Shown: piece after piece, positions 8,448-64,000 of the stretch
Position numbering within the stretch: the stretch's first letter is position 1
Layout of the letters: each line of letters starts with the position of its first letter
Notes under the pieces: model-generated
The model's database searches: none
What the model saw: the letters and a program-made list of their open reading frames with translations, nothing else
What the model was told of the DNA's origin: nothing
Assembly (NCBI GenBank): GCA_030765485.1
Contig: JAVCCR010000014.1
Location: forward strand, 14,332 to 78,331
Reading direction: 5' to 3'
From: Candidatus Gygaella obscura
GTDB taxonomy: Bacteria; Omnitrophota; Gorgyraeia; Gygaellales; Gygaellaceae
DNA: 64,000 nt
Position numbers and translations under genes: made by a program

Positions 8448-8813
8448 ATGAGAATTTGTGTTACTTCACAGGGTGATAATTTAGATTCAAAAGTTGACCC
8501 GCGTTTTGGCAGATGTCAGTACTTTATTATTGTAGATTCAGATACCTTGGAATTTGAGGCTGTAAAAAACCCTAATATTGATGGTATGGGTGGAGTAGGG
8601 GTACAGTCTGCACAATTTGTCATCTCCAAGGACTTAGCAGCTGTTTTAACCGGTAATGTTGGGCCCAATGCGTTCTCAACCCTAGGGGCAGCGAATCTCA
8701 AGGTTATTACCGGAGTGTCCGGTACAATAAAAGAGGTAGTGGATAATTATAAAAACGGAAAATACAATTCTATAAACGGTCCTAGCGTAGATTCTAAATT
8801 TGGGATGTCTTAA
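8448..8813 (+). CDS. Second NifX/NafY-like FeMo-cofactor-domain protein
   Basis: 'MRICVTSQGDNLDSKVDPRFGRCQYFIIVD', a paralogue of the preceding gene. Confidence 0.75.
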   Translation: MRICVTSQGDNLDSKVDPRFGRCQYFIIVDSDTLEFEAVKNPNIDGMGGVGVQSAQFVISKDLAAVLTGNVGPNAFSTLGAANLKVITGVSGTIKEVVDNYKNGKYNSINGPSVDSKFGMS

Positions 8814-8824
8814 ACTTTCATACT

Positions 8825-34364: not shown

Positions 34365-37310
34365 ATGGAAAAAGAAAAAAGAATAAAGTTTGTTTGGAAT
34401 CTGCATTATGCCTGTAATTACAGGTGTAGTTACTGTAATTTTAATGGTAGCTGGGATGAGCTTTCAGTAAAAAATAAGAAAATTAGCAAGAATGATTGGA
34501 TTAAGGCATGGGATAGGATTTATGATTTATATGGAAGCGTTGATATTCATCTTGTTGGTGGAGAGCCTTGCATATATCCTGATTTTACTGAGATTGTTTG
34601 TAGAATCTCAAAGAAGCATTTTTTAGGTCTTACTACTAATCTTTCAGTTGATTTTAAAAGGTTTGCTGACAGTGTTTCGCCGAAAAGATTTGAGTTTGGT
34701 ATAGGGGCTAGTTTTCATCCGCAGTACGTTAAATTTGAAGACTTTCTAAGTAAGGTGATTGAATTGAAGAATAAAGGGTTTAAAATCTGGGTAAATTATG
34801 TTGCCTATCCGCCCCAGATTGATAAAATGAATTTTTTTAAAAGCACACTTCAAAAACACGGTATTCCTTTTGTCGTACAGCCGTTTCGTGGGACATATAA
34901 TGATAAAATTTACCCTGAGGCTTATACCGATAGTGATCGGTCTATTATTAAGGATATTGCCGGTACGGATTCAAGTATTCAGCAAGACATGCAGTATCAG
35001 TTGGATCGCAAGAATACAAAAGGAGTGCTTTGTAGGGCAGGGCAGATCTTAGCACATATAGAACCCGATGGCACAGTTAAAAGATGTGGTTTGATTGAAA
35101 AGCCTATTGGTAATATATTCGATGCAAACTTTCGATTATTAGATAAACCTTTACCTTGCACTGAAGAACATTGTCCTTGTGATTATATATATTTGGTAGA
35201 TTCGAATGAAAAATTAAATGAGTATTCTGCGAAAAGACAAGATAATATCTCGGAAAAAGAAGCAAGCGCACATGTGGTTGTTGATTTGATTGAAGAGGCT
35301 GAATTTTGTCTGTTTAAGCTGGAGGATTTTGATACCGCAGAGGCATTGATAAAAAAGGCACTTGCAAAAGATAAAGATAATATTTGGGGGCTAAGGGTTT
35401 TAGCTAACATTTTTAGAAGAAAAGCTGAAAGTAATAATAATGATAATCTTTTGCTTCAAAAGGCAAGAGAAGTTATTGATGATGCGTTATTTATAAGCAA
35501 AGGGGATTCATGTGTGCTTGCTGAATCAGCGCGGATTTATCTTGCGCAGAATCAATATAGAAAGGCAGATTTTGAAATTGTTAAGGCGATTAAAAAAGAT
35601 TCGGAAAATACATATTTTCAGGAGGTGAATCAGAAGATAAAAGATACGGCCTTGTCTTCTATTGATAAGAATTCTTTATCCGTTTCTAATGATCATTTAG
35701 ATATGATGCTTGTTTTGACTCCGGGGTGGGGTAGGGAATCGGCTCCGTTTGCTCTGGCGTCTTTGACAGGTCTTTTGAGGAAGCATAATTTTATAGTTAA
35801 ATCGTTTGATATTAATAATTTTATTTTTCATAGACTTTCTTCTGATAAAAGCAGTGTACAGTTGTGGGATTGGGAGCAGTGCGGTTTTTGGGACGATCGG
35901 CCGTCTGTCGAAAATTTTATCAATAAAAATTCTATTTTAATAGATTCTATAGTTGATTCTATCCTTAAGCAAAAACCAGAGGTTATCGGTTTCTCGGTAT
36001 ATCTGACAACTAAAATAATGAGTCTTGAGTTTGCAAGACGCATAAAAGCAAAAAATCCTAATATTTTAATAGTGTTTGGTGGTTCGCAGTGTCGCCGAAA
36101 AGAAAACTGGAGAGAGCTTATTGAAAATGATTTTGTCGATGCAATTATTTTAGATGATGCAGAAGCAACAATTATCGATTTTTTGAATATTTTTAAGAAA
36201 GAAAAAAAGATTAAATATTGTCCTGGTCTTATTTATCGTGATGGTACTGATATTATAGATTGTGGTGATAGGTCTGTTGTTGATTTAGATGATTTGCCTT
36301 TTGCCGATTTTAGTGATTTTGATTTTAAAAGCTATAAATGCCCGCATATTATCAAAATTGCTTTTAGCCGTGGTTGTACAGAAGGTTGCGCTTATTGTAG
36401 TGCTCGTACAGTATGGCGGGGTTTTAGGACAATGAATGGAGAGAGGATTTTTAATGAGATAAAGTTTCAGGTCGAGAATTTTCATAAGAGAATGGATTAT
36501 TCAATGATCCCTCATTTAATTTTCCTCGATTCTTTAATCAACGCAAATATGCTTGTATTGAAGGATTGGCTTATGCGGTTAGTGGAAGTACGCAAGGATA
36601 AAAATGGTCCGCTTTTTAATTTTATCTGGAGAGCGCAAGCGATTATACGACCGGAAATGAATGAGGAGATTATATCCTTGATCAAGGATTCAGGGTGTGT
36701 AGAGATAAATTATGGGATAGAAAGCGGTTCTGCAAAGGTCTTAAAAGATATGCGAAAAAGATATACGCCTGAGATTGCAGAAAAGGTAGTTCGTTGTATT
36801 TACAAATATGGTATACCGGCAAAAGCTAATTTTATGTTTGGTTTTCCTACCGAAACAGAAGAAGATTTTAAAGGTACACTAAATTTTATTCAAAGGAATG
36901 CCCGATTTATGACAGAGGTTTATCCTAGCAGGACATTTTGTGCTATTGAGAGATTCACTTATCTGTTTGAAAATAGGGAAAAATTCGGAATTTTACCGCA
37001 AAAGCAGGAAAACCATCTTTTTTGGCAATCGCAGAACGGAAAGAATAATTATCTTGTAAGAGTGGAAAGATATTTTGCCTTCTGTAAGCTACTTGCAAAT
37101 CTTGATCATAAGCCTTTGGTGACGGGGGTTGATAATATTGAACGGGACAAGTGGCTTTCTCTCGGACAGTATTATCAGTATGAACAGGATTTTACCAAGG
37201 CGTTAGAGTGTTATGATAATTATATTAAGTTAAACGGAGTTATTGATTCAGTGGAAGAGTCTATGAATATATGCAAAGCCTATTTATCCAAAAGAGAGAC
37301 GAAAATCTAA
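34365..37310 (+). CDS. Two-module radical SAM fusion: radical SAM module + TPR region + B12-binding (class B) radical SAM
   Basis: N-terminal 'NLHYACNYRCSYCNF' + 'HLVGGEPCIYP' + C-terminal 'CRAG...RCG...PCTEEHCPCD'. After the TPR region: 'MMLVLTPGWGRESAPFALASLTGLLRKHNF' (B12-like) and 'RGCTEGCAYCSART'. Confidence 0.8.
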   Translation: MEKEKRIKFVWNLHYACNYRCSYCNFNGSWDELSVKNKKISKNDWIKAWDRIYDLYGSVDIHLVGGEPCIYPDFTEIVCRISKKHFLGLTTNLSVDFKRFADSVSPKRFEFGIGASFHPQYVKFEDFLSKVIELKNKGFKIWVNYVAYPPQIDKMNFFKSTLQKHGIPFVVQPFRGTYNDKIYPEAYTDSDRSIIKDIAGTDSSIQQDMQYQLDRKNTKGVLCRAGQILAHIEPDGTVKRCGLIEKPIGNIFDANFRLLDKPLPCTEEHCPCDYIYLVDSNEKLNEYSAKRQDNISEKEASAHVVVDLIEEAEFCLFKLEDFDTAEALIKKALAKDKDNIWGLRVLANIFRRKAESNNNDNLLLQKAREVIDDALFISKGDSCVLAESARIYLAQNQYRKADFEIVKAIKKDSENTYFQEVNQKIKDTALSSIDKNSLSVSNDHLDMMLVLTPGWGRESAPFALASLTGLLRKHNFIVKSFDINNFIFHRLSSDKSSVQLWDWEQCGFWDDRPSVENFINKNSILIDSIVDSILKQKPEVIGFSVYLTTKIMSLEFARRIKAKNPNILIVFGGSQCRRKENWRELIENDFVDAIILDDAEATIIDFLNIFKKEKKIKYCPGLIYRDGTDIIDCGDRSVVDLDDLPFADFSDFDFKSYKCPHIIKIAFSRGCTEGCAYCSARTVWRGFRTMNGERIFNEIKFQVENFHKRMDYSMIPHLIFLDSLINANMLVLKDWLMRLVEVRKDKNGPLFNFIWRAQAIIRPEMNEEIISLIKDSGCVEINYGIESGSAKVLKDMRKRYTPEIAEKVVRCIYKYGIPAKANFMFGFPTETEEDFKGTLNFIQRNARFMTEVYPSRTFCAIERFTYLFENREKFGILPQKQENHLFWQSQNGKNNYLVRVERYFAFCKLLANLDHKPLVTGVDNIERDKWLSLGQYYQYEQDFTKALECYDNYIKLNGVIDSVEESMNICKAYLSKRETKI

Positions 37311-40751: not shown

Positions 40752-43700
40752 ATGATTAAAAAGATGAATTTAGTAAAGTATGCCGAGATTATTGTGAATA
40801 ATCAAAAGATTAATGAATCGGAATTTCGAAAAGGCAGAATAACGCTTAAATCTTATCCGCCAAATGTCTTTATGCAGCTCGATGGACCTTGTAACCATAA
40901 TTGCATATTTTGTTCTCGCCCTGAAAAATATGATTATTTTAATTTAGAAGAATTTAAGAAGCGTTTTGTTGATATTATGCCAGTTTTTTTAAATGCAAAA
41001 ATGATTTATCTTACAGGCGCAGGAGAATTTTTAATGCTTCCTGATAGTCTAGATATAATTAAATTCTTTGATAATAATTTTCCCGCCTCTGGCAAAAGCT
41101 TTGCTACAAATGCAACATGTTTTAATAACTATATTTTTAATTATTTAGAAAGCATCAAGAGTAATTTTAGTATTCAGGTGTCTTTGCATGCTAGTAACGC
41201 TGAGTTACATAAAAAACTAGTTGGTAGATATGATTTTGATCAAACTATTCAAAATTTAAGTAGATTATTGGCTATTTCGGAAAATAACCGTAATTTGGAT
41301 GTTTATGCCATGTTTGTTTTAAATACGCTTAATATTTCGGATTTGCCTGAATTTGTAAAGCTGTGTAGTTCTATGGGTATAAGAAAAGTGTGTTGTAATT
41401 ATAATTCTGTTTATAGATTGGATCAGAAAAAACTTTCTTTATTTTTTAATCAGGCAAAAGCTAACGATGTTCTTAATTCAGTGCGTTCTTTAGCTTCAGA
41501 TCTTTCTATTGAGATTAATTTACCTCCTTTATTTGCGAAAGATAATTCCTATTACAAATTCTGTAAGGATTATTGCAGTGATCCTTGGTATCAGATAATG
41601 CTTAATTTCAAGGGAGAAGTTATGCCTTGCTGTTTATTTGAGGGGGTTGCTCCGGGGAATATACTGGAACAAGGGTTTAAAAAGATTTGGAATGGGGAAG
41701 TTTATAAAGCGTTGAGGGAATCAATACTCAATAAGAAAAAAGCTATTTATTGTAATTATTGCATAGAAAACAATCCGGAATCTGTGAATCATATCAAATC
41801 TCATTTGATAATTCGAGGAAAGAACAAACAAGAACTTCAGGAATTTCTTAAGCCAGAGTTTGATACGAGAGTTACTATTGATGAAAATAAAATGATTCAA
41901 TTTGTTTGGCGTTTGAACTACGAATGCAATTTTAATTGTCCTTATTGTTCAGTGATGTATTGGGGCGAAGAAAAAATTACCAGAAAAGACAAAACAGTGT
42001 TTTTATCAGTCGATGAATGGATTGAGCATTGGGAAAAGATATACGATATATACGGAAGTGTGGAGATTCATATTGTAGGTGGAGAGCCAACTATTTATCC
42101 AGGGTTTTTTAAATTGGTGGAAAGATTATCTAAAAAGCATTATTTCGGTTTTGATACTAATCTTTCTGCTGATTTTACAGATTTTATAAAAACTATTCCT
42201 CCTGAAAGAGTTAGTTTTGGTATTGGGGCAAGTTTTCATCCTACGCAGACCAAATTCGAAGATTTCATAAATAAGGTTGATAGGTTAGCAAGGGCAAATT
42301 TTAAGATATGGATAAATTATGTAGCATATCCTGAGCAATTAAACGAAATAGCTTATTATAAAAACGAGGTAGAAAAAAGAGGGTATCATTTTGTGATGCA
42401 ACCTTTTTGCGGTAAATACAAAGATAAAATCTATCCTAAGGAATATATAGATAATGAAAAAAACATAATGAGAGGTCTTGCAAAAGGTAATAGCGTTCTA
42501 GAAGAGAATATGCAGTATCAGCTTGAGCAGAAGATAGTAAAAGGTAAGCTTTGTTATGCAGGTATGAAGTTTGCTTTTATACATGCAGACGGTACTATAA
42601 AAAGATGCGGCGAGGGGCCAAGTCCTGCTATTGGTAATTTTTTCGATAAAGAGTTTAGGCTTTTTGATAAGCCGTTGCCCTGTGATTGTGATACATGCTA
42701 TTGTGAGTTTAAATGGTTGGTGGAGAATGAAAGAAAGACCACGCAGCAAGAAGAAAATAAGAGCTTAATTGTAAAGCAAGTCAAGAATAGTGATTTTGGA
42801 GATAAATTCAAGAAGATCAATAGATTAATTATGGATGATGAGTTAGATGAGTCAAAAAAAATTGCTAGAGAGGTTTTGGATTGTGATAAAGACAACGGTA
42901 ATGGTTTTAGTGTTATGGCAAAAATATACCGTATGAAAGCACAGTCGATAGATTTGGTTTCGGCTAGGGAAGATTATGCTTATTTAGCCAAGTCTAATAT
43001 AAAACGGGCATTGGAATATGACCCTGATGATTTATCTGCACAGTTGGAAGCTATTCGTATTTTTATTATCGATAAGGACGTAATTGCAGCAAAAAAGATT
43101 TTTGATAATATAATGATTAAATATCCAGAATCTGAAGAGGCACATGCACTGGTTAAAAGAATAGAGCATTTAAATAGAGAACTTCATAGAAGTCATCAAG
43201 CTGTTGAGATTTTTCGTAAAGAAAAGAATATTTTTTCAAGAATAAAATCAAAGGTAATAGCAAAAGATATGAGATTTTCTTATCGAGTTATTTTCGATTG
43301 GGATATGCATTATGATTGTAATTATAGTTGCTCATATTGTTACTATAAAAATAAATGGAATGAGTTATCGTTAAAAAACATATATCCTGGTAACAGTAAA
43401 CTAATACGGATATGGAGTAATATTTATGATACTTTCGGTAAGTGTTTTATAAGACTTAATGGTAGAGAACCAAGTGTGTACCCTGATTTTTTCAATCTTA
43501 TAAAAGGTCTTTCTTTAAAACATACATTGGAATTAAATACGAATCTGTTTTTTGATTTTGAAAGATTGATAGAGACGGTTGCTCCTGAAAACGTAAGTAT
43601 TAAAGCAATTTTCCATAAAGAAAATGTGAGTTTAGAATCATTTTTGAATAAGGCAAGTTATCTTAACAGGCATGGTTTCCAGGTAAGCGTTGTTTGTTTG

Positions 43701-44147
43701 GCTCATCCGGATAATTTAAATGAACTTTATAGGATAAAACAAGCCGTAGAAGATATTAATCTTACTTTTCTGATTGAACCGTTTCAAGGAGTATATAAAG
43801 AATTAGAATATCCCCATGGGTATTCTTTTGAACAAATGAGAATTATTTCGGATATAGTAGCTTTTTCACCTGTGAATAAACTTATTTTCGAGCCAATTCT
43901 TAGGAAAGAAAAGATAATAAATAATGATAGGCGGTTATGCAGGATGGGCCAGCTTTATGTAAAGGTTTTTTCTGATGGTGAGATATATCGCTGTAGAGAT
44001 AATTTATCAGAGAAAATCGGTAATCTTTACAATGATGATAATCTTTTTGTTTGGAACGAACCTAGATATTGTGACAAGAAAAGCTGTTCTTATTGGAATG
44101 CAATGATTGTAGGTAAAGAAAAGAAATGGATTCGATATTGGAGATAA
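40752..44147 (+). CDS. Three-module radical SAM fusion (rSAM/SPASM-like + rSAM module + TPR + rSAM module)
   Basis: Module 1 'GPCNHNCIFCSRPE...SLHASN...CSDPW...PCCLFEG...CNYCIENN', paralogous to the giant fusion's C-terminal domain. Module 2 'RLNYECNFNCPYCSV...HIVGGEPTIYP...GIGASFHP...CGEG...PCDCDTCYC', ~60% identical to the N-terminal module of 34365. Module 3 'DMHYDCNYSCSYCYY...'. Confidence 0.8.
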   Translation: MIKKMNLVKYAEIIVNNQKINESEFRKGRITLKSYPPNVFMQLDGPCNHNCIFCSRPEKYDYFNLEEFKKRFVDIMPVFLNAKMIYLTGAGEFLMLPDSLDIIKFFDNNFPASGKSFATNATCFNNYIFNYLESIKSNFSIQVSLHASNAELHKKLVGRYDFDQTIQNLSRLLAISENNRNLDVYAMFVLNTLNISDLPEFVKLCSSMGIRKVCCNYNSVYRLDQKKLSLFFNQAKANDVLNSVRSLASDLSIEINLPPLFAKDNSYYKFCKDYCSDPWYQIMLNFKGEVMPCCLFEGVAPGNILEQGFKKIWNGEVYKALRESILNKKKAIYCNYCIENNPESVNHIKSHLIIRGKNKQELQEFLKPEFDTRVTIDENKMIQFVWRLNYECNFNCPYCSVMYWGEEKITRKDKTVFLSVDEWIEHWEKIYDIYGSVEIHIVGGEPTIYPGFFKLVERLSKKHYFGFDTNLSADFTDFIKTIPPERVSFGIGASFHPTQTKFEDFINKVDRLARANFKIWINYVAYPEQLNEIAYYKNEVEKRGYHFVMQPFCGKYKDKIYPKEYIDNEKNIMRGLAKGNSVLEENMQYQLEQKIVKGKLCYAGMKFAFIHADGTIKRCGEGPSPAIGNFFDKEFRLFDKPLPCDCDTCYCEFKWLVENERKTTQQEENKSLIVKQVKNSDFGDKFKKINRLIMDDELDESKKIAREVLDCDKDNGNGFSVMAKIYRMKAQSIDLVSAREDYAYLAKSNIKRALEYDPDDLSAQLEAIRIFIIDKDVIAAKKIFDNIMIKYPESEEAHALVKRIEHLNRELHRSHQAVEIFRKEKNIFSRIKSKVIAKDMRFSYRVIFDWDMHYDCNYSCSYCYYKNKWNELSLKNIYPGNSKLIRIWSNIYDTFGKCFIRLNGREPSVYPDFFNLIKGLSLKHTLELNTNLFFDFERLIETVAPENVSIKAIFHKENVSLESFLNKASYLNRHGFQVSVVCLAHPDNLNELYRIKQAVEDINLTFLIEPFQGVYKELEYPHGYSFEQMRIISDIVAFSPVNKLIFEPILRKEKIINNDRRLCRMGQLYVKVFSDGEIYRCRDNLSEKIGNLYNDDNLFVWNEPRYCDKKSCSYWNAMIVGKEKKWIRYWR

Positions 44148-54322: not shown

Positions 54323-55042
54323 ATGCTTGGAATTAATATCGCAGTGTTAACTAAACAGCAAATTGTTCAAAAGCTTATTGAATTCTCCAGGCCGCCAATG
54401 GTGAATACGGTTTTTTATTTAAACGCTCATTGTATTAATCTTGCTTCTGTAGATGCAGATTATCGTAAGATATTAATTAATAGCGATATTGTTTACTCAG
54501 GGGGATTTGGTGTAGTGTGGGCATCAAGTTTTTTGGGTAAATCACTGCCAGAGAGAGTCAACATTTTGGATTTTTTTGACGAGTTAACTAGTCATTTGAT
54601 TGAGAATAAGACTAAGGTTTATTTGCTTGGTGATGAAGATATTGTTATTAAAGCCTGCGAACTTGAATTAAAGGGAAAAGGAATAAATATAGTTGGTTGT
54701 CATAGTGGTTTTTTTGGCGATGGCGAAGAAAAATCCATTATTGAGAACATTAATCGGTTATCTCCTGATATTTTAATGGTTGGTATGGGCGTTCCAAGAC
54801 AAGAAAAATGGATTAGTAGAAATAAATCCAAAATTAAGGCGAATTTAATATGGGGTGTTGGTGGTGCATTCTGTTGGCTTTCTGGAAAACGTAAGAGAGC
54901 CCCACGCTGGATGATAAATAGTGGTTTTGAGTGGTTCTATAGGTTAATGCAGGAGCCAAAAAGGCTACGGAGCCGTTATGTATTCGGCAATATTGTGTTT
55001 CTTTCCAGAGTTTTATTCTGGAAAATAAGAAGAATTGATTAA
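54323..55042 (+). CDS. WecB/TagA/CpsF-family (GT26) glycosyltransferase
   Basis: 'GINIAVLTKQQIVQKL', 'FYLNAHCINLA', 'MVGMGVPRQEKWI'. Confidence 0.8.
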   Translation: MLGINIAVLTKQQIVQKLIEFSRPPMVNTVFYLNAHCINLASVDADYRKILINSDIVYSGGFGVVWASSFLGKSLPERVNILDFFDELTSHLIENKTKVYLLGDEDIVIKACELELKGKGINIVGCHSGFFGDGEEKSIIENINRLSPDILMVGMGVPRQEKWISRNKSKIKANLIWGVGGAFCWLSGKRKRAPRWMINSGFEWFYRLMQEPKRLRSRYVFGNIVFLSRVLFWKIRRID

Positions 55043-55043
55043 A

Positions 55044-56030
55044 ATGAATAGGAAGTTTAAGATAATTTTATTTTTATTCTTAATGATTGATTTAGCGATA
55101 ATTTTTTTATTATTTAACTCGCGGAGCTTTTCGCATTTAGCAATATGGAATATTGAGGAATCATTGTCACAAAAAGATTTTAATTGGTTCAAGGAAACGC
55201 CTGCTCCAAAATCTTATGTTATTCCGGATAAAGAAAAGCTTAGCTATTTCAACCAAGAGGCTAATAAAATTAACCTTAAGAATAAAAATGAACTAGAAGC
55301 CGTATTGTTTTTATCAGGAAGGTTAATAGGTGCGCTAAATGTTAATTATCAAACAAAAAAATATGTTACATGGGATCATCCTCAATCAATGGATAGATAT
55401 ATACAGGATGGCCACGGTGCAAATTGCATATATCGCTCTATTGTTTTATCAAGTTATCTTTCAAGTATGGGTATTTATTCTAGGTTGTGGAGTTTGGAGA
55501 ATATATTTTTTGAAGATATTCCGCATACGGTAATTGAAGTTTATGCAAAACATTTAGAAAAATGGGTTTTTCTTGATGTTATGCATGATTTTATGGTTTT
55601 GAAAGATGGAATTCCATTGTCATTGCTTGAATTTAGATCCCTAGTTTTAAGTGAAAGTGACGCTGATATAAAAATAATACGTATTTCTACACGCAAAGAG
55701 ATGGATAAGGATTTTCTGGATGGGTATAGGCACTTGTTAAATACCGTTTTTTTGAGGCTTGACAATGATTTTATCAAGGGATTTGAGAAAAGATACGGAA
55801 TATTGAATATATTTTCATTATCTATCGATCGTTTAAGCGATAAATTTAGAAGAGGTATTGATTATATTTTTGGCTCAAAGGAATATTTTATTCATTTTGT
55901 AGATAGATATAGTCCCAGTCTAAGTTCCGGTATTCTTTTTTCAAAAAGTGTTTATTTATTTTTCGTGTTTAGTTTTCTTTTATTTTTCATTATTTGTTTT
56001 GTATATTTAATGAAAAGAAGAAAAAGATAA
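55044..56030 (+). CDS. Hypothetical membrane-anchored protein (possible transglutaminase-like Cys-His-Asp core)
   Basis: N- and C-terminal TM helices. 'GHGANCIYRSIV' ... 'IPHTVIEVY' ... 'WVFLDV' ordering resembles a transglutaminase-like core. Weak. Confidence 0.35.
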   Translation: MNRKFKIILFLFLMIDLAIIFLLFNSRSFSHLAIWNIEESLSQKDFNWFKETPAPKSYVIPDKEKLSYFNQEANKINLKNKNELEAVLFLSGRLIGALNVNYQTKKYVTWDHPQSMDRYIQDGHGANCIYRSIVLSSYLSSMGIYSRLWSLENIFFEDIPHTVIEVYAKHLEKWVFLDVMHDFMVLKDGIPLSLLEFRSLVLSESDADIKIIRISTRKEMDKDFLDGYRHLLNTVFLRLDNDFIKGFEKRYGILNIFSLSIDRLSDKFRRGIDYIFGSKEYFIHFVDRYSPSLSSGILFSKSVYLFFVFSFLLFFIICFVYLMKRRKR

Positions 56031-56042
56031 TAATATAATTAA

Positions 56043-56960
56043 ATGCAATTAGAAATAAGAAACAAAAATAGATTATTTTACGAAATACGTTTAAAAATTA
56101 AAAAGATAATCTATTCAAACGAATATTTATTAAGAAAGTATTCTTTTCTCAAAAGTATTGTCATTAAATATTTTTCTTGTAACCAATTGAAAGATAATAA
56201 GTTATTTGAAAAGGTGTTTATTGAGACTATCTCATATTGTAATAATGATTGTGAATTTTGTTCTGTTCGCATATCAAGCGTTATAAAGAAAAGTTCCAAT
56301 TTGATGGAAGAGGGTATTTTTTTAAAGATAATTGAGGAATTAGTTAATTTATCTTTTAAAGGAAGCGTTGCTTTTCATTGTAATAATGAGCCATTTTTGG
56401 ATGAAAGACTACCGTATTTTATAAAGCTAGCTAGAAAAATGCTTAAAAAAAACTTCTTTTATTTATATACAAATGGAACATTACTTACGGATGAATTATT
56501 AAAAGATGTTTTTATTGTTGGGATCAATCGTATTATAGTTAATGATTATAATGGTTCGTTTAAATTAATGCAAACAGTTGAAAATTTTGTTAAACATAAT
56601 CGCGAACTAAATGGTGAGATAATATTTTACCATAGAAAAACAAATGAATTTTTAGGCAATAGATCAGGTGCAAGCCCCAATAAGAGGTTAATTTTAGAAA
56701 AACCATTAAAGGCAATATGCATAAGGCCGGCAAAAGAGATTGTTATTTGTTATGATGGTTCGGTTATGTTATGTTGCTGCGATAGTTTATGGAAAAATAA
56801 AATGGGTAATATTAATGAAAGTAGCTTAAAAGATATATGGGTAGGCCATGATTTTGCAAGTAAGCGTAAGGCATTGTTGAGGTTTAACCGAAATATTAGT
56901 TCAATTTGTAAAGTTTGCGATGCGGTGGATTTATCCGTTAAAAAAGGAGTCTTGTTCTAA
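56043..56960 (+). CDS. Radical SAM/SPASM-like protein
   Basis: 'ISYCNNDCEFCSV', C-terminal 'CIRPAKEIVICYDGSVMLCCCDSLW...CKVCDA'. Confidence 0.75.
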   Translation: MQLEIRNKNRLFYEIRLKIKKIIYSNEYLLRKYSFLKSIVIKYFSCNQLKDNKLFEKVFIETISYCNNDCEFCSVRISSVIKKSSNLMEEGIFLKIIEELVNLSFKGSVAFHCNNEPFLDERLPYFIKLARKMLKKNFFYLYTNGTLLTDELLKDVFIVGINRIIVNDYNGSFKLMQTVENFVKHNRELNGEIIFYHRKTNEFLGNRSGASPNKRLILEKPLKAICIRPAKEIVICYDGSVMLCCCDSLWKNKMGNINESSLKDIWVGHDFASKRKALLRFNRNISSICKVCDAVDLSVKKGVLF

Positions 56961-56962
56961 GG

Positions 56963-57415
56963 ATGAATAATAAAAAAGATAATGTTTTATCAGAAACTTT
57001 CTTTTATGAGGCGAATGGTTATAGCATGTGGCCTTTTTTAAAACCGGGTTATAAACTTATAGTAAAAAAAATATCTATTTATGAGATAAAATTAGGAGAT
57101 TTGGTTTTGTATAGATATAAGAATAAACTAATTTGCCATAGAGTTATCAGAAAGAGTTTAAAGAATGATGATGTTGTTCTTTATTTGAGAGCAGATAATT
57201 CCTGCTGTGGTAGTGAATGTATAAGTAGTGTTAATTATGTTGGTAAGGCAGTTGAATTATGTTTGGAAAATAAGGTTATAAGTCTTATTTCATGGCAAAT
57301 GATATTTGTTAATCGTTTGTTAGTAATATTTTCCCCATTTGTTTATTGTGTAATAAAGCCGTTGTGGCAAATTTTGCGAAAGGTAAGGAACTCTTGGCAA
57401 AAAAGAAGAAAATAA
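56963..57415 (+). CDS. S24/S26-family (signal-peptidase/LexA-like) Ser-Lys peptidase-like protein
   Basis: 'NGYSMWPFLKPGYKLIV...GDLVLYR' (Ser nucleophile motif) and 'CHRVIRK' (candidate general-base Lys). 150 aa. Confidence 0.45.
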   Translation: MNNKKDNVLSETFFYEANGYSMWPFLKPGYKLIVKKISIYEIKLGDLVLYRYKNKLICHRVIRKSLKNDDVVLYLRADNSCCGSECISSVNYVGKAVELCLENKVISLISWQMIFVNRLLVIFSPFVYCVIKPLWQILRKVRNSWQKRRK

Positions 57416-59592
57416 AGCTTTTATTTATTCAGTTACCTTCTCCAGAGTATGTTTTTCAGAAGTTTTGGGGAAATGTTCCTCTTGCCGCGGGTTATCTCAA
57501 GGCCATGGCTTATAAAAATAAACTACTTAAGTATATTGATATAGAAATTTTAAGGCCCATAGATACAAATCTATCTTCAGATTCAAGACTTGTTAATTTA
57601 ATAGTTAATAAATCTCCTGATGTATTAGCGGTATCTTTATATATCTGGAATTCTTTGAGAAGTCTCCATATGATTAATCAGGTAAAGAAGAAATTACCAA
57701 ACATTACTATACTTTGTGGGGGGTCAGAGGTATCGGATGATTCTAAATATATTCTTAATAATCCGAATGTAGATTTTGGTTTTCTTGGAGAAAGCGAGAT
57801 ATCATTCGTTAACTTTTTGAAGGAATTAATTAGTAAAAATAGAGATTTTAGTAAAGTAAAAGGTATTTTTTATCGCGAAAAAGATAGAATTATAATTAAT
57901 CCCAGAGAAGAAATTATGCATAATCTAGATGAAATTCCATCTCCTTTTGAATTAGGTTTTCTGGATGTGTCTGAATATAAAGTAGTATCCTATGAGTCCG
58001 TTAGAGGGTGTATTAATAATTGTTCTTATTGTGGTGTAGGAATAAGACCAATGAGGTTTTTTTCTGCAAAAAGAGTAGGTAACGATTTAAAAATTATTAT
58101 TAAAAAAAGAGTTATAGCAATTCGTTTTATTGATAGTGATATCTTACTTCATCCTTATTTTGAGCAAATTGGTGAACAGATTAAGGTTATTAATAGAAAT
58201 AAAAACACTGTATTCTTTGCTTTTTCATATCCAGAGAGGATAGATCAAAGAATAGCGAGGCTTTTTAAAGATTGTAATTTTGATTTTTTTGAATTAGGTT
58301 TACAGTGTTTAAAAACTAAGACATTTAGAAATATTAAAAGATCTATTATGAATAAACAAAAGTTTATTAAAGGAATTAGGTGTTTATCAAAAGAAGGAAT
58401 CAATTATGCTATTGATGTTATGATAGGTTTACCTGATGATACCTTGTCAGATTTGAAAAAGGTAAAAAAGTTTATAGATAATAATAGGATTCCTAAGATT
58501 ATCCCTGCAGTTTTGATGATACTTCCTGATACACCTTTAAGAAAACAAGCAAAGAAACGCAAGATAGTGTTTTCAAAAATTCCTCCATATTTTATTAAAA
58601 AAGCTCCTTATATTTCAGGTGATGAAATCAAAAAGGCTAAAGATTTGTTAGGAGTAAGAGAAGATTACGTTAAGTTACCAGATTTATTTTCTGAGAATTA
58701 TGATCTTCCATTTAGATCAAAGCTTCAAATAAAGACAAATAATCTAAATTTATCAAAAGTGGGTAATGGAAAATTACTAATAAATAAGTTGATTATTGAT
58801 TTAGACAATCTAAATTATTTGAGTTTTAAAAAAAAGATTAGTTTAGTCTTAAAAAATATTTCATCTCCATTTACTTTTTGGATAAAAACAAGAGATTTTG
58901 ATAGATCAGTTGGTTTATTTTACGAGATTGTTGATTTCATAGCATTGGATAATCCATATTTAATGTGGAATATAATTATTGAAAGCAAAAAGGTCTTTTC
59001 TAGGACAATACCAAGAGAAATTAGTAAAAAGGTTATTTGTAAAGAAAATGTCGTGGCGGATATCTGTAATTGTGTTAAACCTATAAAAATCTGTGCTGTT
59101 TTTGATTTTGGTTTGACTGAAGAAAAAGAAATCTCAGATTTAAATATGGAAATTCCAGTTTTTCGATCTATTTTTGCTAAGGATACTTTGAATTTTGAAA
59201 AAGATTGCTTAAAGGTTTTAGAATTAAATAATTCTAAAGGTATAATTGTATCATTCAAAAAAAACTTAGACCATAAAGATTTCATTATAATGTTAGATTT
59301 TATGTTTAGTTTATTTCATAAATCCTCCAAAGATGTTGTTTTTAGAAGTTACGTAGTAAGATTTCTTTGGAAGTTATTTACTAAGAAAGATAAGAATATT
59401 GTTATTTTTCCTGATGTTTTAGAGTCTATTTTAAAGTTAGGGCATAAAAATAATTATTTATTTATTGAGGCTAATACTAAGTTATTGTATTCTTTGCTAT
59501 GTCTACAGTTGGAATTCAATAAGTATATTAATAATAGTACTAAAGATTTAAATAATTCTTTATCTAATCATAAAAATGACTATTTTGTATAG
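57394..59592 (+). CDS. B12-binding (class B) radical SAM protein with long C-terminal extension
   Basis: 'KIKLLFIQLPSPEYVFQKFWGNVPLAAGYLKAMAY' B12-binding-like N-terminus, 'RGCINNCSYCGVG'. Start uncertain: TTG 57394 has an 'aggtaagga' RBS, and the ORF track offers TTG 57346. Confidence 0.7.
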   Translation: MAKKKKIKLLFIQLPSPEYVFQKFWGNVPLAAGYLKAMAYKNKLLKYIDIEILRPIDTNLSSDSRLVNLIVNKSPDVLAVSLYIWNSLRSLHMINQVKKKLPNITILCGGSEVSDDSKYILNNPNVDFGFLGESEISFVNFLKELISKNRDFSKVKGIFYREKDRIIINPREEIMHNLDEIPSPFELGFLDVSEYKVVSYESVRGCINNCSYCGVGIRPMRFFSAKRVGNDLKIIIKKRVIAIRFIDSDILLHPYFEQIGEQIKVINRNKNTVFFAFSYPERIDQRIARLFKDCNFDFFELGLQCLKTKTFRNIKRSIMNKQKFIKGIRCLSKEGINYAIDVMIGLPDDTLSDLKKVKKFIDNNRIPKIIPAVLMILPDTPLRKQAKKRKIVFSKIPPYFIKKAPYISGDEIKKAKDLLGVREDYVKLPDLFSENYDLPFRSKLQIKTNNLNLSKVGNGKLLINKLIIDLDNLNYLSFKKKISLVLKNISSPFTFWIKTRDFDRSVGLFYEIVDFIALDNPYLMWNIIIESKKVFSRTIPREISKKVICKENVVADICNCVKPIKICAVFDFGLTEEKEISDLNMEIPVFRSIFAKDTLNFEKDCLKVLELNNSKGIIVSFKKNLDHKDFIIMLDFMFSLFHKSSKDVVFRSYVVRFLWKLFTKKDKNIVIFPDVLESILKLGHKNNYLFIEANTKLLYSLLCLQLEFNKYINNSTKDLNNSLSNHKNDYFV

Positions 59593-59613: not shown

Positions 59614-59644
59614 TAATTATTAATTGGATTAAGGAGGAGTGATT

Positions 59645-59881
59645 ATGAAGAAGAAAAAATTTATTTCACCGAAAATTTCTGTGATAAAACTTGCCCCTGA
59701 GCAGGCGGTTTTATCTTGTAATTGTTATAGTAGCGGGAGCCATGTTACTGGCAGTAGTGTACATAATGTTGGAATTGCTTCTGCGTCAAGAGGTTATTGT
59801 TGGGCAAGGGGAAATGCATTTCATTTAATTCATGCAAGTGGGGGAAGATGGGGTTCTGCAAGCAGTTCAAGTAGTTCCTAG
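59645..59881 (+). CDS. 78-aa Ser/Gly/His-rich peptide with basic N-terminal leader-like segment and poly-Ser C-terminus; candidate RiPP/glycopeptide precursor
   Basis: MKKKKFISPKISVIKLAPEQAVLSCNCYSSGSHVTGSSVHNVGIASASRGYCWARGNAFHLIHASGGRWGSASSSSSS. Has its own promoter and consensus RBS, and is flanked by modifying enzymes. Confidence 0.5.
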   Translation: MKKKKFISPKISVIKLAPEQAVLSCNCYSSGSHVTGSSVHNVGIASASRGYCWARGNAFHLIHASGGRWGSASSSSSS

Positions 59882-59961
59882 TCTATCTATAATATAATGT
59901 GGTTTCTATTCAATTAATAAACTAATAATATTATAACATTAGGTAAATATATTTGCTTTTT

Positions 59962-60915
59962 ATGAAAACGGGCAAATTAAAACATATATATAAATTCAAA
60001 ATAGCAGATATAATTGTTCATATATCAAGCTATATAAAATTAAGGGATAATTCATTTACCCTCCATAAGCAGAGGTTTTCCCGTTTTATGTACAGCGGTA
60101 AAAAACTCCCTTCTATCACAATCGATGTAAAAGTAGTAGATTCTTTTCCCGAAATAACCTTAAAGCCTATTTTTGTAGTTTATGATTTGGATCTAGATAG
60201 TGCAAATTGGAAATTATACAAGAAAAATAATGAGTACATCTACGCAATAAAATGCATAGGAACGGATATGGTCGCTTTTATAAATAGAAAGTTTGATAAA
60301 GCTCGTGTTTTTATCAGTAAGAAAGAAGAATGTAACTATCGGGGAGAATTTATTAGATTTGATTTTTCTTGGGAGATATACGACGTTGTTACATATCTAC
60401 TTCAATTTCTTATGACTCATTATTTGATTGAAAATAAATTAGGAGTGATAATACATTGTTGTGGTATAAAAAATCGTTTTAATAAAGGGTTTATTTTTGC
60501 AGGTAGTTCTGGATGCGGAAAGACAACAATTGCGAGAATAATGGAGAAATCAAAAGAAAATGAAGTTTTAAACGACGATAGGATAATTGTTAGAAAAAGT
60601 AAAGATAAGTTTAAAATGTATGCCTCTCCTTGGAGAGGGGAGTTTGAGAATTTTGTAAATTCAAATACAAATGGGATTGATTTAAATAAAATTTATTTTA
60701 TTTATCCTCACCAGGAAAATGTATTAGGTTTAATTGAACCCAAAAAAGCTTTTTACAAAATAAGTACTTTGATTTTAGCGTCATTTTGGAATAAAGAATA
60801 TATTAAGAGAGCTTTTGATTTCTGTAAGTATTTAGTGAAAGATATTTCTTGCTATGATCTTGGGTTTAAAAACAACAAATCAATAACAAAATATTTGTTT
60901 TCAAAAAAGAAATAA
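59962..60915 (+). CDS. HPr-kinase/phosphorylase C-terminal-domain-like P-loop protein
   Basis: 'GFIFAGSSGCGKTTIARI' matches the HprK-type GxSGxGK(S/T) P-loop. ATG at 59962 (the ORF-track TTG at 59953 is an alternative). Confidence 0.5.
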   Translation: MKTGKLKHIYKFKIADIIVHISSYIKLRDNSFTLHKQRFSRFMYSGKKLPSITIDVKVVDSFPEITLKPIFVVYDLDLDSANWKLYKKNNEYIYAIKCIGTDMVAFINRKFDKARVFISKKEECNYRGEFIRFDFSWEIYDVVTYLLQFLMTHYLIENKLGVIIHCCGIKNRFNKGFIFAGSSGCGKTTIARIMEKSKENEVLNDDRIIVRKSKDKFKMYASPWRGEFENFVNSNTNGIDLNKIYFIYPHQENVLGLIEPKKAFYKISTLILASFWNKEYIKRAFDFCKYLVKDISCYDLGFKNNKSITKYLFSKKK

Positions 60916-60922
60916 GTAAACA

Positions 60923-62146
60923 ATGAAATGGCTAAGAATTGAAGTAGCGAATTATTGTAATTTAGAGTGTAAATATTGTTTTTTTGCTGATTTAAGGAGC
61001 AAGAATAAAGATGATGTTATGAGTTTTGATGAGTTTAAAAGAATTGTTAGTCTTTGTCGTAAGGAAGGGATTAAGGAAATTTATATACAGGGCGGCGAGC
61101 CTATGCAGAATCCTAATATTGAAAAAATGATTAACTTATTGGTTTCTTATGATGATTTTAATGTAACTTTATTTACAAACGGGTTGTTTCCTATTGGTTT
61201 AACAGAGATTTTAAATTATCCAAGAATAAAAACGCTTTTAAATTATAATCACCCAAATAATTGTAATAATTATAAAGATTGGGAAGATATAAATCAAAAC
61301 ATAAAAAAACTGAAAAAAATTGGTGCAGATTTTTCTCTAGGTTTTAATTTTTATCAACATAAACCAGACTATGGATATTTTATTGACGCCATAAAAAAAT
61401 ATAAGTTTAAAAACATAAGATGGGATTTAGCAAGGCCTTCTGGTATGCTTAAAAATAGTTTTTTTTCTTTTAAAGAGATATTCAGTTTGCGTATCATCTT
61501 AGCAAAGTTTTTAAAAGACTGTCTTGATGCTGGAGCATTTCCTAATTCAGATTGTCCTCTGCCGGTATGTTTCACGAAAGATAAGATTTTTTCTTTTCTT
61601 CCCAGGGGACTATTTAGTCCTTTTTCGAGCTGTGATTCAATTGTTAATATTGGTCCAGGGTTGCGAATTTCTAGTTGTCCGGCATCAGTGATGTTTGATA
61701 AGATAAGACTTGATGATTTCGGTTCTTTAAATCAAGTAGCAGAATTTGTATCTTACTCTATAGATAAAATAAGATGGAGAATTCCTTCAAACGTTAAATG
61801 CAAAAAATGTTTTTATTGGGAAAATAGACTTTGTCAAGGTGGTTGTGTAGGTTATAAACGTATAAATAATAATAAAGTTATTGGACGTAGAGAGTTGCAC
61901 GATTTTTTTAAAGATAAGGATAATTATAAAAAGATATCTTCCAGGGATAGTTTCTATTCTAAGAAATTGAATAAAGAGAAAGATTTCTTTAAAAAAGGAC
62001 TTTTGTCGCTGAAAATTAGTGATAATGATCAGGCTTTTAAAAATTTCATTAAAGTAGATAAAAGAACGCTTTCTATAACAGAGAAAAAATGGTTAAACAA
62101 CTATTTGAATGATCAGATTAGTTTTATTGTAAATGAGAGAAATTAA
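60923..62146 (+). CDS. Radical SAM/SPASM-like protein
   Basis: 'NYCNLECKYCFF', 'IQGGEP', C-terminal 'CPLPVCF...SSCDS...SSCPAS...CKKCFYWENRLCQGGCVGY'. Confidence 0.8.
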   Translation: MKWLRIEVANYCNLECKYCFFADLRSKNKDDVMSFDEFKRIVSLCRKEGIKEIYIQGGEPMQNPNIEKMINLLVSYDDFNVTLFTNGLFPIGLTEILNYPRIKTLLNYNHPNNCNNYKDWEDINQNIKKLKKIGADFSLGFNFYQHKPDYGYFIDAIKKYKFKNIRWDLARPSGMLKNSFFSFKEIFSLRIILAKFLKDCLDAGAFPNSDCPLPVCFTKDKIFSFLPRGLFSPFSSCDSIVNIGPGLRISSCPASVMFDKIRLDDFGSLNQVAEFVSYSIDKIRWRIPSNVKCKKCFYWENRLCQGGCVGYKRINNNKVIGRRELHDFFKDKDNYKKISSRDSFYSKKLNKEKDFFKKGLLSLKISDNDQAFKNFIKVDKRTLSITEKKWLNNYLNDQISFIVNERN

Positions 62147-62165: not shown

Positions 62166-62894
62166 ATGAAAAAAGAAAGTTTGATTGTTTTGTTTTCCGG
62201 GGGGGTTGATTCTACTTATACCGCCATGAAAATGGCAGATATTTATAAGACTCTGCATTGCCTTACTTATGAAAGATTTGGTTTTATAAATGCAAGTAAT
62301 TCTGAAAAAAGTTTCCAGCAGGTATCTGAAAATAACAAAGACATCAAAGCAGTACATAAAATTATTAATATCGATAATTTTGTTAAGAAAGTTTCCTACA
62401 GTAATTATTTAATAAATCTTTGTAAATATGGTTTTGTTGTTCTGTCGAATTGTCTTATTTGCAAATTAGCAATGCATTGGAGGACAATAATTTATTGTAG
62501 AGAAAATAATTTGAAAGAGGTTTGTGATGGTGCAAATAAGGAAATGTATGGAGACCCATCCCAGAATAAAGTTATTTTAGAAAAGATTGTGAAGTTGTAC
62601 GAGTATTTTAATATTAGATATTTTAGTCCATTTTTTGATGAGTTAAGAAAAGAAAGAGAAGATTATCTTTTTGCTGTTGAAATAATTCCTGTGCAGTATG
62701 CGAAATGGAGTAGGTTTTCAAGGGAGAGACAACCTTTTTGTTGCCAAGAGCATCTATCTGTTTTATTTAAGCGGTTTAGAGAAAATATTTTAAATCAATA
62801 TTCTAATTTGAATATGAAAAATATCGAAAAAGATATTTGTGAGTATTGTGATGAAAAAATAAGCTGTATCAAAAATGAAATTGAAAGAAATTAG
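62166..62894 (+). CDS. PP-loop ATP pyrophosphatase family protein (QueC/ExsB-like)
   Basis: 'LIVLFSGGVDSTYTA' SGGxDS motif. C-terminal Cys pairs ('CEYCDEKISC'). Confidence 0.55.
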   Translation: MKKESLIVLFSGGVDSTYTAMKMADIYKTLHCLTYERFGFINASNSEKSFQQVSENNKDIKAVHKIINIDNFVKKVSYSNYLINLCKYGFVVLSNCLICKLAMHWRTIIYCRENNLKEVCDGANKEMYGDPSQNKVILEKIVKLYEYFNIRYFSPFFDELRKEREDYLFAVEIIPVQYAKWSRFSRERQPFCCQEHLSVLFKRFRENILNQYSNLNMKNIEKDICEYCDEKISCIKNEIERN

Positions 62895-63318
62895 ATTTTT
62901 GTCTTTGTGTTTGAATGTATTACGACATGGATTACTTTTTTTGAAGCTACTAGTTGCAGTATTTTTACCTTATAAAATTAGATGTTTTTATTCTGAATGG
63001 TTAATGAAACTGGAATTTGGTTTTAAAATTGATAAGAAAAATGGCATTATAGCAGGTGAAAAATTTGATAGAAGAAGAGAATATGATATTTTTGTTTCAA
63101 GAGGGATAGCTTACTATAATGATGGTTGTGTTGAAAAGGCATTAAAAAGCTTTAATAAAGCATTGGAGTTGTCTTTTAATAAAAAAAGCGCATTTTATGT
63201 TTATTCACTGCTTCAAGAAATATATAGCAAGAATGATATTACTGATTTATATTTTGAAACAATTTTGAGTGCTTATAAATCCAAAAAAGATTTAATTAAT
63301 AAGGAAGAGGTTTTGTAG
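62875..63318 (+). CDS. Small hypothetical protein with TPR-like helical repeat
   Basis: 'GIAYYNDGCVEKALKSFNKALELSFNKKSAFYVYSLLQEIY' is TPR-like. Overlaps the upstream gene by 20 nt. Confidence 0.4.
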   Translation: MKLKEIRFLSLCLNVLRHGLLFLKLLVAVFLPYKIRCFYSEWLMKLEFGFKIDKKNGIIAGEKFDRRREYDIFVSRGIAYYNDGCVEKALKSFNKALELSFNKKSAFYVYSLLQEIYSKNDITDLYFETILSAYKSKKDLINKEEVL

Positions 63319-63319
63319 C

Positions 63320-64000
63320 GTGGTAAACAAGAAGATTTTTTTAATTGAAAATCATGATAGTGCTTTGAAAGTTTGGAAAGACAATAGAATTAAATGTTGT
63401 AATTTGGTGCACATAGATGCTCATATTGACTGGAATTTCATTAAAGCAAGACCTTTAAAGCGCGTACTTAAAGAGTCTTGTTCTTTAAAAGAATTAAAGA
63501 CTAATCTTGAGTATAGCTATGCCTATTTGCGTTACGATCGTGATTTTAATAAGCAAGTCAATGAGGGCAATTATATTTTTCAGGCTTTTGAAGAAGGCAT
63601 AGTTAAAGATTTTTTTTGGGTTATTCCAGGAGATAAGAAAATATTTAAAGATTCAAGCAAGATTATAAGAGGATTACTTTTAAGAATTGGTAGGTTTTAT
63701 AGTAAAAAAAGCACTATAAGAATCGATAAAAAATCGTGCAAAGCGGAAATAAGATTCAATGGAAGAAAGATAGTATTTTGTACTTTGGACGGCCTTGATT
63801 TTATCAACAGAGATGTGCTTCTTGATATAGACATAGATTTTTTGGTGATTAAAAGCATTAAGCGGTCTCTTAATATTCAAGATATAGGAACACGGCAGCT
63901 ATGGATAAACCCTGAGAAATTAATTGTTTGTTTAAAAAGTAAAATTCGTAAATTCAAGATTGCAACAATTGCGTATTCTGTTAATGGGGGGTGGACTCCT
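63320..64000 (+). CDS. Hypothetical protein, 3'-partial (open to the window end); GTG start 2 nt after the upstream stop
   Basis: Frame 2 is open from 63320 to the window edge. 'IFLIENHDSALKVWKDNRIKCCNLVHIDAHIDWN' resembles a metal-binding DxHxD-type motif. Missing from the ORF track only because no stop falls inside the window. Confidence 0.45.
   Translation, partial: MVNKKIFLIENHDSALKVWKDNRIKCCNLVHIDAHIDWNFIKARPLKRVLKESCSLKELKTNLEYSYAYLRYDRDFNKQVNEGNYIFQAFEEGIVKDFFWVIPGDKKIFKDSSKIIRGLLLRIGRFYSKKSTIRIDKKSCKAEIRFNGRKIVFCTLDGLDFINRDVLLDIDIDFLVIKSIKRSLNIQDIGTRQLWINPEKLIVCLKSKIRKFKIATIAYSVNGGWTP

Follow-up and report, generated by a model that had tools for sequence, protein, structure and literature searches.

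A putative peptide kinase of HprK/PEPCK fold, encoded beside a Ser-terminated precursor in a radical-SAM peptide cluster of an Omnitrophota genome

We analysed a stretch of 64,000 nucleotides (nt; the window) from contig JAVCCR010000014.1 of assembly GCA_030765485.1, a metagenome-assembled genome (MAG) of the Omnitrophota named 'Candidatus Gygaella obscura'. The analysis was centred on two neighbouring open reading frames (ORFs), one encoding a P-loop protein that resembles a kinase and the other a small peptide with a Ser-rich tail. An original prediction, made from the sequence, had proposed that the first protein phosphorylates the tail of the second. The features of the gene pair are the following:

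59645..59881, + strand: precursor peptide gene, 78 residues, with a leader, a CxC motif and one later Cys in the core, and C-terminal GSASSSSSS
59962 (ATG)..60915 (TAA), + strand: kinase-like ORF, 317 residues, P-loop protein of HprK/PEPCK fold, divergent ScmC-like, putative peptide Ser/Thr kinase
Kinase motifs, + strand: His165 at 60454-60456; Walker A G181-T189 (GSSGCGKTT, residues 181-189) at 60502-60528; Asp205-Asp206 at 60574-60579

The kinase-like gene lies 80 nt downstream of the peptide gene on the same strand. Both ORFs were confirmed, and the peptide indeed ends in the predicted eight Ser/Ala-Ser residues, SASSSSSS. The full peptide (MKKKKFISPKISVIKLAPEQAVLSCNCYSSGSHVTGSSVHNVGIASASRGYCWARGNAFHLIHASGGRWGSASSSSSS) consists of the leader MKKKKFISPKISVIKLAPEQAVL and a remainder that includes the C-terminal segment HASGGRWGSASSSSSS. 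A Shine-Dalgarno sequence (AAGGAGG, 59631-59637) stands 7 nt ahead of its ATG, and the kinase-like ORF has an alternative start, TTG at 59953. Public MAG assemblies call both genes identically (P9L96_03175 and P9L96_03180). The intergenic segment 59860-59975 is without significant RNA structure (z 0.17), and no terminator-like site was found 3' of the peptide gene. The six terminal Ser are encoded by mixed codons (AGC AGT TCA AGT AGT TCC) and therefore do not represent a slippage repeat; moreover, the tail is the sole run of five or more Ser among all stop-to-stop ORFs of at least 60 residues in the window. The pairing of peptide and kinase-like protein is not due to chance, since a peptide homologue is present in 75 of the 81 kinase-centred loci, comprising 80 loci fetched through kinase relatives and L001, which repeats the locus of the window.

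Single-sequence searches with the kinase-like protein were dominated by generic P-loop matches (DnaX, ABC transporters, AAA+), with weak matches among them to HprK-related kinase B (E 4e-5), ScmC, HprK-related kinase A and PEP carboxykinase (PEPCK). An identity as DnaX, ABC transporter or AAA+ protein was rejected, as these are motif-only matches. The original prediction had read GSSGCGKTT as an HprK-type P-loop. The nine residues by themselves are not diagnostic, because alone they match DnaX and ABC transporters best; the assignment to the HprK type stands by virtue of the whole fold together with the His and Asp-Asp motifs, which align with those of HprK. The Pfam model for PEPCK (PF01293) scored 15.6 bits against a cut-off of 26.5, with an alignment confined to the surroundings of the P-loop. 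A word-indexed homology search yielded two relatives of the kinase-like protein and none of the peptide. An exhaustive profile search for the kinase family, on the other hand, returned 18,261 representative clusters at E<=1e-3, of which 653 reach E<=1e-30. The models matched by 69 diverse relatives were ScmC (54), HprK_rel_B (50), HprK_rel_A (22) and genuine hpr-ser (10). The Pfam family given by the precomputed annotation is PF27840 (ScmC), an entry outside the local Pfam copy; the window protein's match carries the mark 'faint', and those of relatives in minimal cassettes carry no mark. The kinase-like protein belongs, as a divergent representative, to the ScmC/"HprK-related kinase" group, which is uncharacterised.

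The predicted structure connects this group to two known enzyme families. An AlphaFold (AF2) model made from the 69-sequence alignment had a predicted local distance difference test score (pLDDT) of 93.4 and a predicted template modelling score (pTM) of 0.91. A Foldseek comparison with the PDB gave PEPCK (E 2e-7 to 2e-4, both domains covered, query-normalised template modelling (TM) score about 0.47) and the HprK/P chains 1knx, 1ko7 and 3tqf (E 6e-4 to 5e-3). Only these two families were significant, the next match having an E of 0.2, and an unrelated P-loop fold, for example one like that of shikimate or gluconate kinase, which would have spoken against the original prediction, was absent. 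The fold class is the one that this prediction had named. The TM scores against full-length HprK were low (0.23-0.30). The family profile, compared with the PDB sequences, likewise matched PEPCK (4e-5) and HprK (1jb1/2qmh, 3.5e-4). The alignment by hhalign with the catalytic domain of Lactobacillus casei HprK, using a sequence 100 % identical to 1jb1_A, gave 91.5 % probability and E 8.6e-7 and pairs His165 with the HprK motif MHGV, GSSGCGKT with GDSGVGKS and LNDDR (Asp205-Asp206) with IADDR. The aligned HprK residues are presumably His140 and Asp178/Asp179. Invariant among the 69 diverse relatives are His165, Gly186, Lys187, Asp205 and Pro223. The model thus predicts a PEPCK-like P-loop catalytic domain in the kinase-like protein.

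The precursor peptide belongs to a family of its own. The ScmC family is already in the databases. No Pfam or NCBIfam model matches the 78-residue precursor or its relatives. The latter were recovered by hidden Markov model (HMM) searches of the fetched loci after the word-indexed search had given none, and the window peptide matches the HMM built from the other loci with an E of 3e-16. The family leader is conserved as K-P-K-F-K-P-x-I-T-R-V-K-L-N-P-E-Q-A-V-L (KLxPEQAVL) and reads KKPQINQVNLVIEEAVL in distant lineages. It is directly followed by a Cys motif (CxC[Y], CC or xCK) and by a hypervariable core whose length ranges from 18 to 65 residues; 50 peptides have 3 Cys in it and 29 have 4. 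The last residue, however, hardly varies: among 91 non-redundant full-length peptides it is Ser in 77, Thr in 13 and Arg in 1 (Ser or Thr in 90/91), against a background in the other ORFs of the same loci of 8.6 % terminal Ser and 3.7 % terminal Thr. Ser or Thr at internal core positions is not conserved, unlike the terminal residue, and the penultimate residue is Ser in 31 and Gly in 29 peptides. Searched database-wide, the peptide profile matched 159 proteins, every one an unnamed 'hypothetical'; the best 120 of these all carry a terminal Ser, in 119 cases as 'GS'. Considering that the terminal Ser/Thr run has a length of 1 in 50 peptides, 2 in 26, 3 in 9 and 6 in the window peptide alone, the last residue alone is conserved, and the poly-Ser tail is an elaboration peculiar to this peptide. 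The 90/91 and 120/120 counts independently favour, on comparative grounds, the predicted phosphorylation of the Ser tail, with the refinement that what is conserved is the terminal hydroxy residue and not the Ser/Ala tail of eight residues.

Other Omnitrophota loci encode 2-6 paralogous precursors with unrelated cores (six in L040, three each in L003, L022 and L024). Truncated copies of 38 residues with a stop shortly past the CxC motif (L005 2615-2731 and L009 2576-2692) are probably decayed paralogues.

The 80 loci come from scanning a single genome of each species, the 11 closest kinase relatives serving as query. They derive mostly from Omnitrophota MAGs, and further from Aminicenantes, Desulfobacterota, Nitrospirota/Nitrospinota, Chloroflexota, KSB1, Clostridia and one archaeon. 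Clustering of the ORFs of the fetched loci defined a cassette of PqqD, a radical SAM (rSAM)/SPASM enzyme, the precursor, the kinase-like protein and an S24 peptidase, often accompanied by NTP_transf_5:

PqqD-like protein: about 98 residues; 50 loci
rSAM/SPASM enzymes: about 361 residues, 1-2 per locus; 79 loci
Small peptide: variable size; 75/81 loci
Kinase-like protein: about 307 residues; 74 loci by clustering, every fetched locus by phmmer
S24/S26 peptidase: about 150 residues; 49 loci, counted together with the NTP_transf_5 genes (fusion proteins single-linked the two into one cluster)
NTP_transf_5 (PF14907) nucleotidyltransferase: about 390 residues; at least 36 loci
MsbA-type ABC exporter: about 560 residues; 36 loci

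Variable accessories of the cassette are B12-rSAM methyltransferases, a UPF0489/peptide-arginase-like TPR protein and glycosyltransferases. When contexts were collected starting from the peptide, all four complete ones held PqqD, rSAM, peptide, ScmC and Peptidase_S24, and three of the four also NTP_transf_5 and a PilZ gene. In its minimal form (L087) the cassette has five genes and no glycan genes, and the kinase-like gene is kept.

Recurrent in the flanks of the cassette are genes for HD_5 (HD-GYP-like), AAA_22 (ExeA-like), PilZ, polysaccharide-export and Wzc-like proteins (L008, L014, L036, L043, L056, L057, L059, L062 and L086-L090), which may point to a connection with exopolysaccharide or cyclic di-GMP (c-di-GMP) biology and not with the making of antibiotics.

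A functional parallel is offered by the lasso peptides. HprK homologues in lasso clusters of the paeninodin type phosphorylate the precursor's C-terminal Ser on its side chain, as the original prediction had stated; they recognise little besides this Ser, and several phosphates are possible (PMC8498205, PMC6993621). In the case of pseudomycoidin, PsmN, an 'uncharacterized NTP transferase', puts hexoses on the phosphate (PMC8498205, PMC6993621), and the Asp-Asp pair of the kinase PsmK, equivalent to Asp205-Asp206 here, is essential (D158A/D159A; PMC6993621). The lasso kinases PadeK (paeninodin), ThcoK and PsmK (pseudomycoidin) combine an HprK-superfamily P-loop with an Asp-Asp pair, like the kinase-like protein of the window. 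Their precursors have little in common beyond the C-terminal Ser, and the window precursor is likewise Ser-terminated. Lasso systems also have a PqqD-type partner that binds the leader and, in pseudomycoidin-type clusters, a nucleotidyltransferase, and both are found in the cluster of this genome. The presence of NTP_transf_5 in the cassette and in this cluster lends comparative support to a further suggestion of the original prediction, that the tail may serve as a handle for modification. Nevertheless, the sequence similarity to PadeK, ThcoK and PsmK is remote, and the homology to these characterised kinases is indirect, the likeness being drawn from published descriptions. In addition, the core machinery differs, being formed here by radical SAM/SPASM enzymes and an S24 peptidase. 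Neither an AsnB-like cyclase nor a B2 protease is encoded in the window or in a second assembly of the locus (L082), and the PP-loop protein encoded at 62166 is LarE/QueC-like, not AsnB-like. The window cluster is not a lasso cluster.

The link between the two kinds of cluster extends to their components. The best model for the PqqD of the window's genome is the Bacillus-type lasso PqqD (E 4e-11). The best match of the cassette NTP_transf_5 in a plasmid database lies in a lasso cluster on the Halopiger xanaduensis plasmid NC_015658.1 (L094), annotated with asnB, a B2 protein, PqqD and an ABC transporter. Directly downstream of the NTP_transf_5 gene in that cluster is an ORF of 299 residues (L094 8223-9122, + strand), annotated just as a shorter hypothetical protein (8568-9122). 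This ORF matches HprK_rel_A and is aligned by hhalign with our kinase family profile (98.1 %, E 7e-14), and is itself uncharacterised. On the basis of the Halopiger and PqqD matches, a module of PqqD, an HprK-like kinase and NTP_transf_5 is found in lasso clusters as well as in the rSAM/SPASM cassette. An unannotated ORF of 53 residues in the Halopiger cluster (L094 9142-9303, minus strand) attains the cut-off of the lasso-leader model and has a terminal Thr. The 290-residue 'hypothetical' gene upstream of the Halopiger nucleotidyltransferase was rejected as a candidate, not being a kinase homologue.

Two more plasmids carry a comparable pair. On the Crinalium epipsammum plasmid NC_019735.1 (L092) NTP_transf_5 lies near a gene annotated 'HPr kinase' (kinase HMM E 7e-7), and on the Bacillus toyonensis plasmid NZ_CP087104.1 (L093) it adjoins a hypothetical protein (kinase HMM E 6e-4). 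Both loci are without annotated lasso or rSAM/SPASM genes, and the kinase-nucleotidyltransferase pair may therefore occur in further types of pathway.

Among the known systems the SynChlorMet cassette (ScmC, TIGR04249/PF27840; ScmD, a PqqD; ScmE and ScmF, rSAM/SPASM enzymes) has an architecture in common with the cassette described here. More specifically, the PqqD encoded beyond the window end matches the ScmD model (E 7.5e-9) and the rSAM/SPASM enzyme encoded there matches ScmF (E 3e-18) and ScmE (E 1e-15), all below the equivalog cut-offs. The window cluster differs in having additional B12-rSAM, YcaO and PP-loop enzymes. HPr kinase/phosphorylase (L. casei, 1JB1) shares the fold of the P-loop domain and the series His, GxSGxGK[ST] and Asp-Asp with the kinase-like protein, but has a different N-terminal domain, substrate and genomic context; no pts genes were found within 10 kb of the kinase-like gene. 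ATP-dependent PEPCK, the best structural match, has the P-loop context 'lHA...G.SGtGKTT' in common with it, but is about 200 residues longer and occurs in an unrelated gene context. The kinase-like protein stands outside the HprK/P and PEPCK families proper. A literature search, with subscription titles outside its reach, found no mention of the SynChlorMet cassette or of an HPr kinase paired with SPASM, and under the same limit nothing relevant on PF14907. A paper of November 2025 covers a handful of phosphorylated natural products, none of the radical-SAM/SPASM type.

Considering the observed fold and catalytic residues, the cassette, the rule of the terminal Ser/Thr and the homology to a kinase-like gene of a lasso cluster, we favour the view, and hold it to be rather probable, that the kinase-like protein phosphorylates the hydroxyl of the terminal Ser78 of the precursor in a non-lasso radical-SAM peptide pathway. 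It would be an ATP-dependent peptide kinase of HprK/PEPCK fold that serves as a maturation enzyme of a ribosomal, post-translationally modified peptide, and its likeliest substrate would be the Ser78 side chain of the precursor encoded 80 nt upstream. The five preceding Ser may give extra sites, or several phosphates may be placed on one Ser, as in the lasso systems. In the order of steps that we infer, the phosphate would then probably be decorated by the NTP_transf_5 nucleotidyltransferase. As to the partner enzymes, the PqqD protein would bind the conserved leader (KLxPEQAVL), the radical-SAM/SPASM enzymes would have the roughly three core Cys as their targets, further modifications may come from the B12-rSAM, YcaO and PP-loop enzymes, and the S24/S26 peptidase would cut off the leader.

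Several points weigh against the phosphorylation of Ser78. For every member of the family a kinase activity is a prediction. The curated models were missed by a wide distance (HprK_rel_B 22.8 bits against 200, ScmC 16.5 against 125), and the HprK models TIGR00679 (E<=0.1) and PF07475 gave no match to the kinase-like protein. The fold alone leaves the class of substrate unfixed, because the best structural match is PEPCK and not HprK. The co-occurrence of the cassette genes is partly built in, since almost all loci were sampled via the kinase, and the check that started from the peptide covers four complete contexts. PsmN is likened to NTP_transf_5 by the description in the paper and not by sequence. 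Finally, the terminal Ser/Thr could be required by the rSAM/SPASM enzyme or by the nucleotidyltransferase instead of the kinase.

The alternative that survives best is one that we regard as unlikely. The kinase-like protein might not be a peptide kinase but an ATP-dependent scaffold or chaperone for rSAM and PqqD, a phosphorylase, or a kinase for a sugar or a lipid-linked intermediate of the neighbouring polysaccharide pathway. In favour of this, PEPCK, which provides the top fold matches, is a small-molecule kinase, ScmC has no assigned function, and polysaccharide or c-di-GMP genes often surround the cassettes, in the present case with the cluster placed after a 30-kb glycan locus. However, its gene stays linked with that of the precursor across many phyla, often immediately downstream of it, and this pairing persists in the L087 cassette, where glycan genes are lacking. 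The same direction is indicated by the His and Asp-Asp of HprK type, which are invariant or nearly so, and by the homology to the kinase-like gene of a lasso cluster.

Phosphorylation could also be directed at an internal Ser or Thr of the core, followed by elimination to dehydroalanine or dehydrobutyrine and reaction with a core Cys, in a lanthipeptide-like manner. Phosphorylation followed by elimination is established chemistry in class II-V lanthipeptides, and the cores are rich in Ser/Thr and contain 3-4 Cys. Yet the window, L082 and the conserved cassette families hold no lyase or cyclase homologue, it is the terminal residue that is conserved and not the internal positions, and cross-linking of the Cys is already accounted for by the rSAM/SPASM enzymes. 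We therefore consider this route decidedly improbable. That the protein is a genuine HPr kinase/phosphorylase of carbon regulation and a coincidental neighbour of the peptide gene can practically be dismissed. In its favour are the catalytic motifs shared with HprK; against it are the missing TIGR00679 and PF07475 matches, the low TM scores against the full-length enzyme and a context that is a conserved peptide-maturation cassette rather than a pts or lgt neighbourhood.

If the protein does phosphorylate the terminal Ser, the finding has a wider meaning. Phosphorylation of side chains is rare among ribosomal natural products, and the kinase and nucleotidyltransferase module of a few Firmicute lasso peptides would turn out to be a portable unit in a far larger peptide family. 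The kinase family numbers at least 653 representative clusters at E<=1e-30 and extends over many uncultured anaerobic phyla. The ScmC-type cassette would, moreover, gain a candidate substrate, namely the unannotated precursors with their conserved leader, three Cys and terminal Ser/Thr. One may speculate further that the cassette, with or without NTP_transf_5, makes modified peptides of a widespread, uncharacterised class, present in Omnitrophota, Aminicenantes, Desulfobacterota, Nitrospirota and others. Their terminal Ser/Thr would be phosphorylated and then joined by a phosphodiester bond to a nucleotide or sugar, and the product could be a peptide that serves a surface polysaccharide as primer, anchor or signal and not an antibiotic. 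This idea, to which we give little credence as yet, derives from the recurrence of the cassette amid polysaccharide export, Wzc-like, PilZ and HD_5 genes, and here from its position after the glycan locus.

The other genes of the cluster that lie in the window are:

56043..56960, + strand: radical SAM/SPASM enzyme, 305 residues, Pfam Radical_SAM and SPASM; accessory maturase
56963..57415, + strand: S24/S26 signal-peptidase-like serine peptidase, 150 residues, SMWP...HRV motifs; putative leader peptidase
57364..59592, + strand: B12-binding radical SAM enzyme, 742 residues in public calls; putative C-methyltransferase
60923..62146, + strand: radical SAM enzyme, 407 residues, Radical_SAM E 9e-15, cassette rSAM HMM E 5.6e-14
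62166..62894, + strand: PP-loop ATP pyrophosphatase-like protein, 242 residues, SGGVDS motif; weak LarE/MnmA/QueC matches, below cut-off
62875..63318, + strand: small TPR protein, 147 residues, TPR_1/TPR_2 matches
63320..64000, + strand: 5' part of a UPF0489/peptide-arginase-like and TPR protein, 487 residues in full, running off the window; family HMM E 8.7e-86

The 56043 protein matches NCBIfam models of peptide and metalloenzyme maturases, all below cut-off. The peptidase matches Peptidase_S24 (E 6.6e-6), sigpep_I_arch (E 2.7e-11) and the cassette-family HMM (E 1e-30). For the B12-binding enzyme the matches are Pfam B12-binding and Radical_SAM, the KedN5 family (E 1.5e-39) and TIGR03975, a radical SAM C-methyltransferase of peptides that are ribosomally made and modified after translation (E 2e-22). 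Its start is ambiguous (TTG 57346, giving 748 residues, or 57364), with an overlap with the S24 gene of about 50-70 nt (57346-57415). The 60923 protein is a divergent relative of the cassette rSAM/SPASM family. No homologue of the PP-loop gene was found in the 80 fetched loci (E<=1e-3); the same holds for the TPR and transglutaminase-like genes of the window, except for one weak TPR match (L039, E 8e-5). The transglutaminase-like gene is an ORF of 331 residues (55035-56030) between WecG and the first rSAM gene, with a weak match to a transglutaminase core (E 8e-4); it may encode a Cys protease that acts in the peptide pathway, or it may belong to the glycan locus.

A stand-alone PqqD or NTP_transf_5 gene is absent from the window, and both lie just past its end. 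Over 11,126 nt the second assembly, L082, matches the window with 100 % identity; it then runs on for about 9.3 kb beyond the window end, where it continues with PqqD, rSAM/SPASM, YcaO, B12-rSAM, NTP_transf_5 (minus strand), B12-rSAM and a QueC-like gene. The rSAM/SPASM enzyme in this part is a canonical one (family HMM E 9e-125), and the NTP_transf_5 gene (L082 16459-17523) is situated about 9 kb downstream of the kinase-like gene. Thus, of a cluster that measures roughly 18 kb, the window contains the 5' half. The YcaO gene and the second QueC-like gene occupy L082 13400-14908 and 19872-20444; together with the PP-loop ATPase they suggest formation of backbone thioamides or azolines, or sulfur-insertion chemistry.

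The peptide cluster directly follows a polysaccharide locus of roughly 30 kb (window 23433-55042), in which all genes are on the + strand. Its main features are:

23433-25157, + strand: Wzt-type ABC ATPase
25147-31638, + strand: fusion protein of 2163 residues with two GT2, a GT4 and rSAM/SPASM domains
31654-34356 and 34365-37310, + strand: B12-rSAM/rSAM-SPASM fusions
40752-44147, + strand: SPASM-rSAM-TPR protein of 1131 residues

Further genes of this locus encode PMT_2, GDSL, Wzy_C and WecG proteins. Fusions of glycosyltransferases with radical-SAM domains as large as that of 25147-31638 are unusual.

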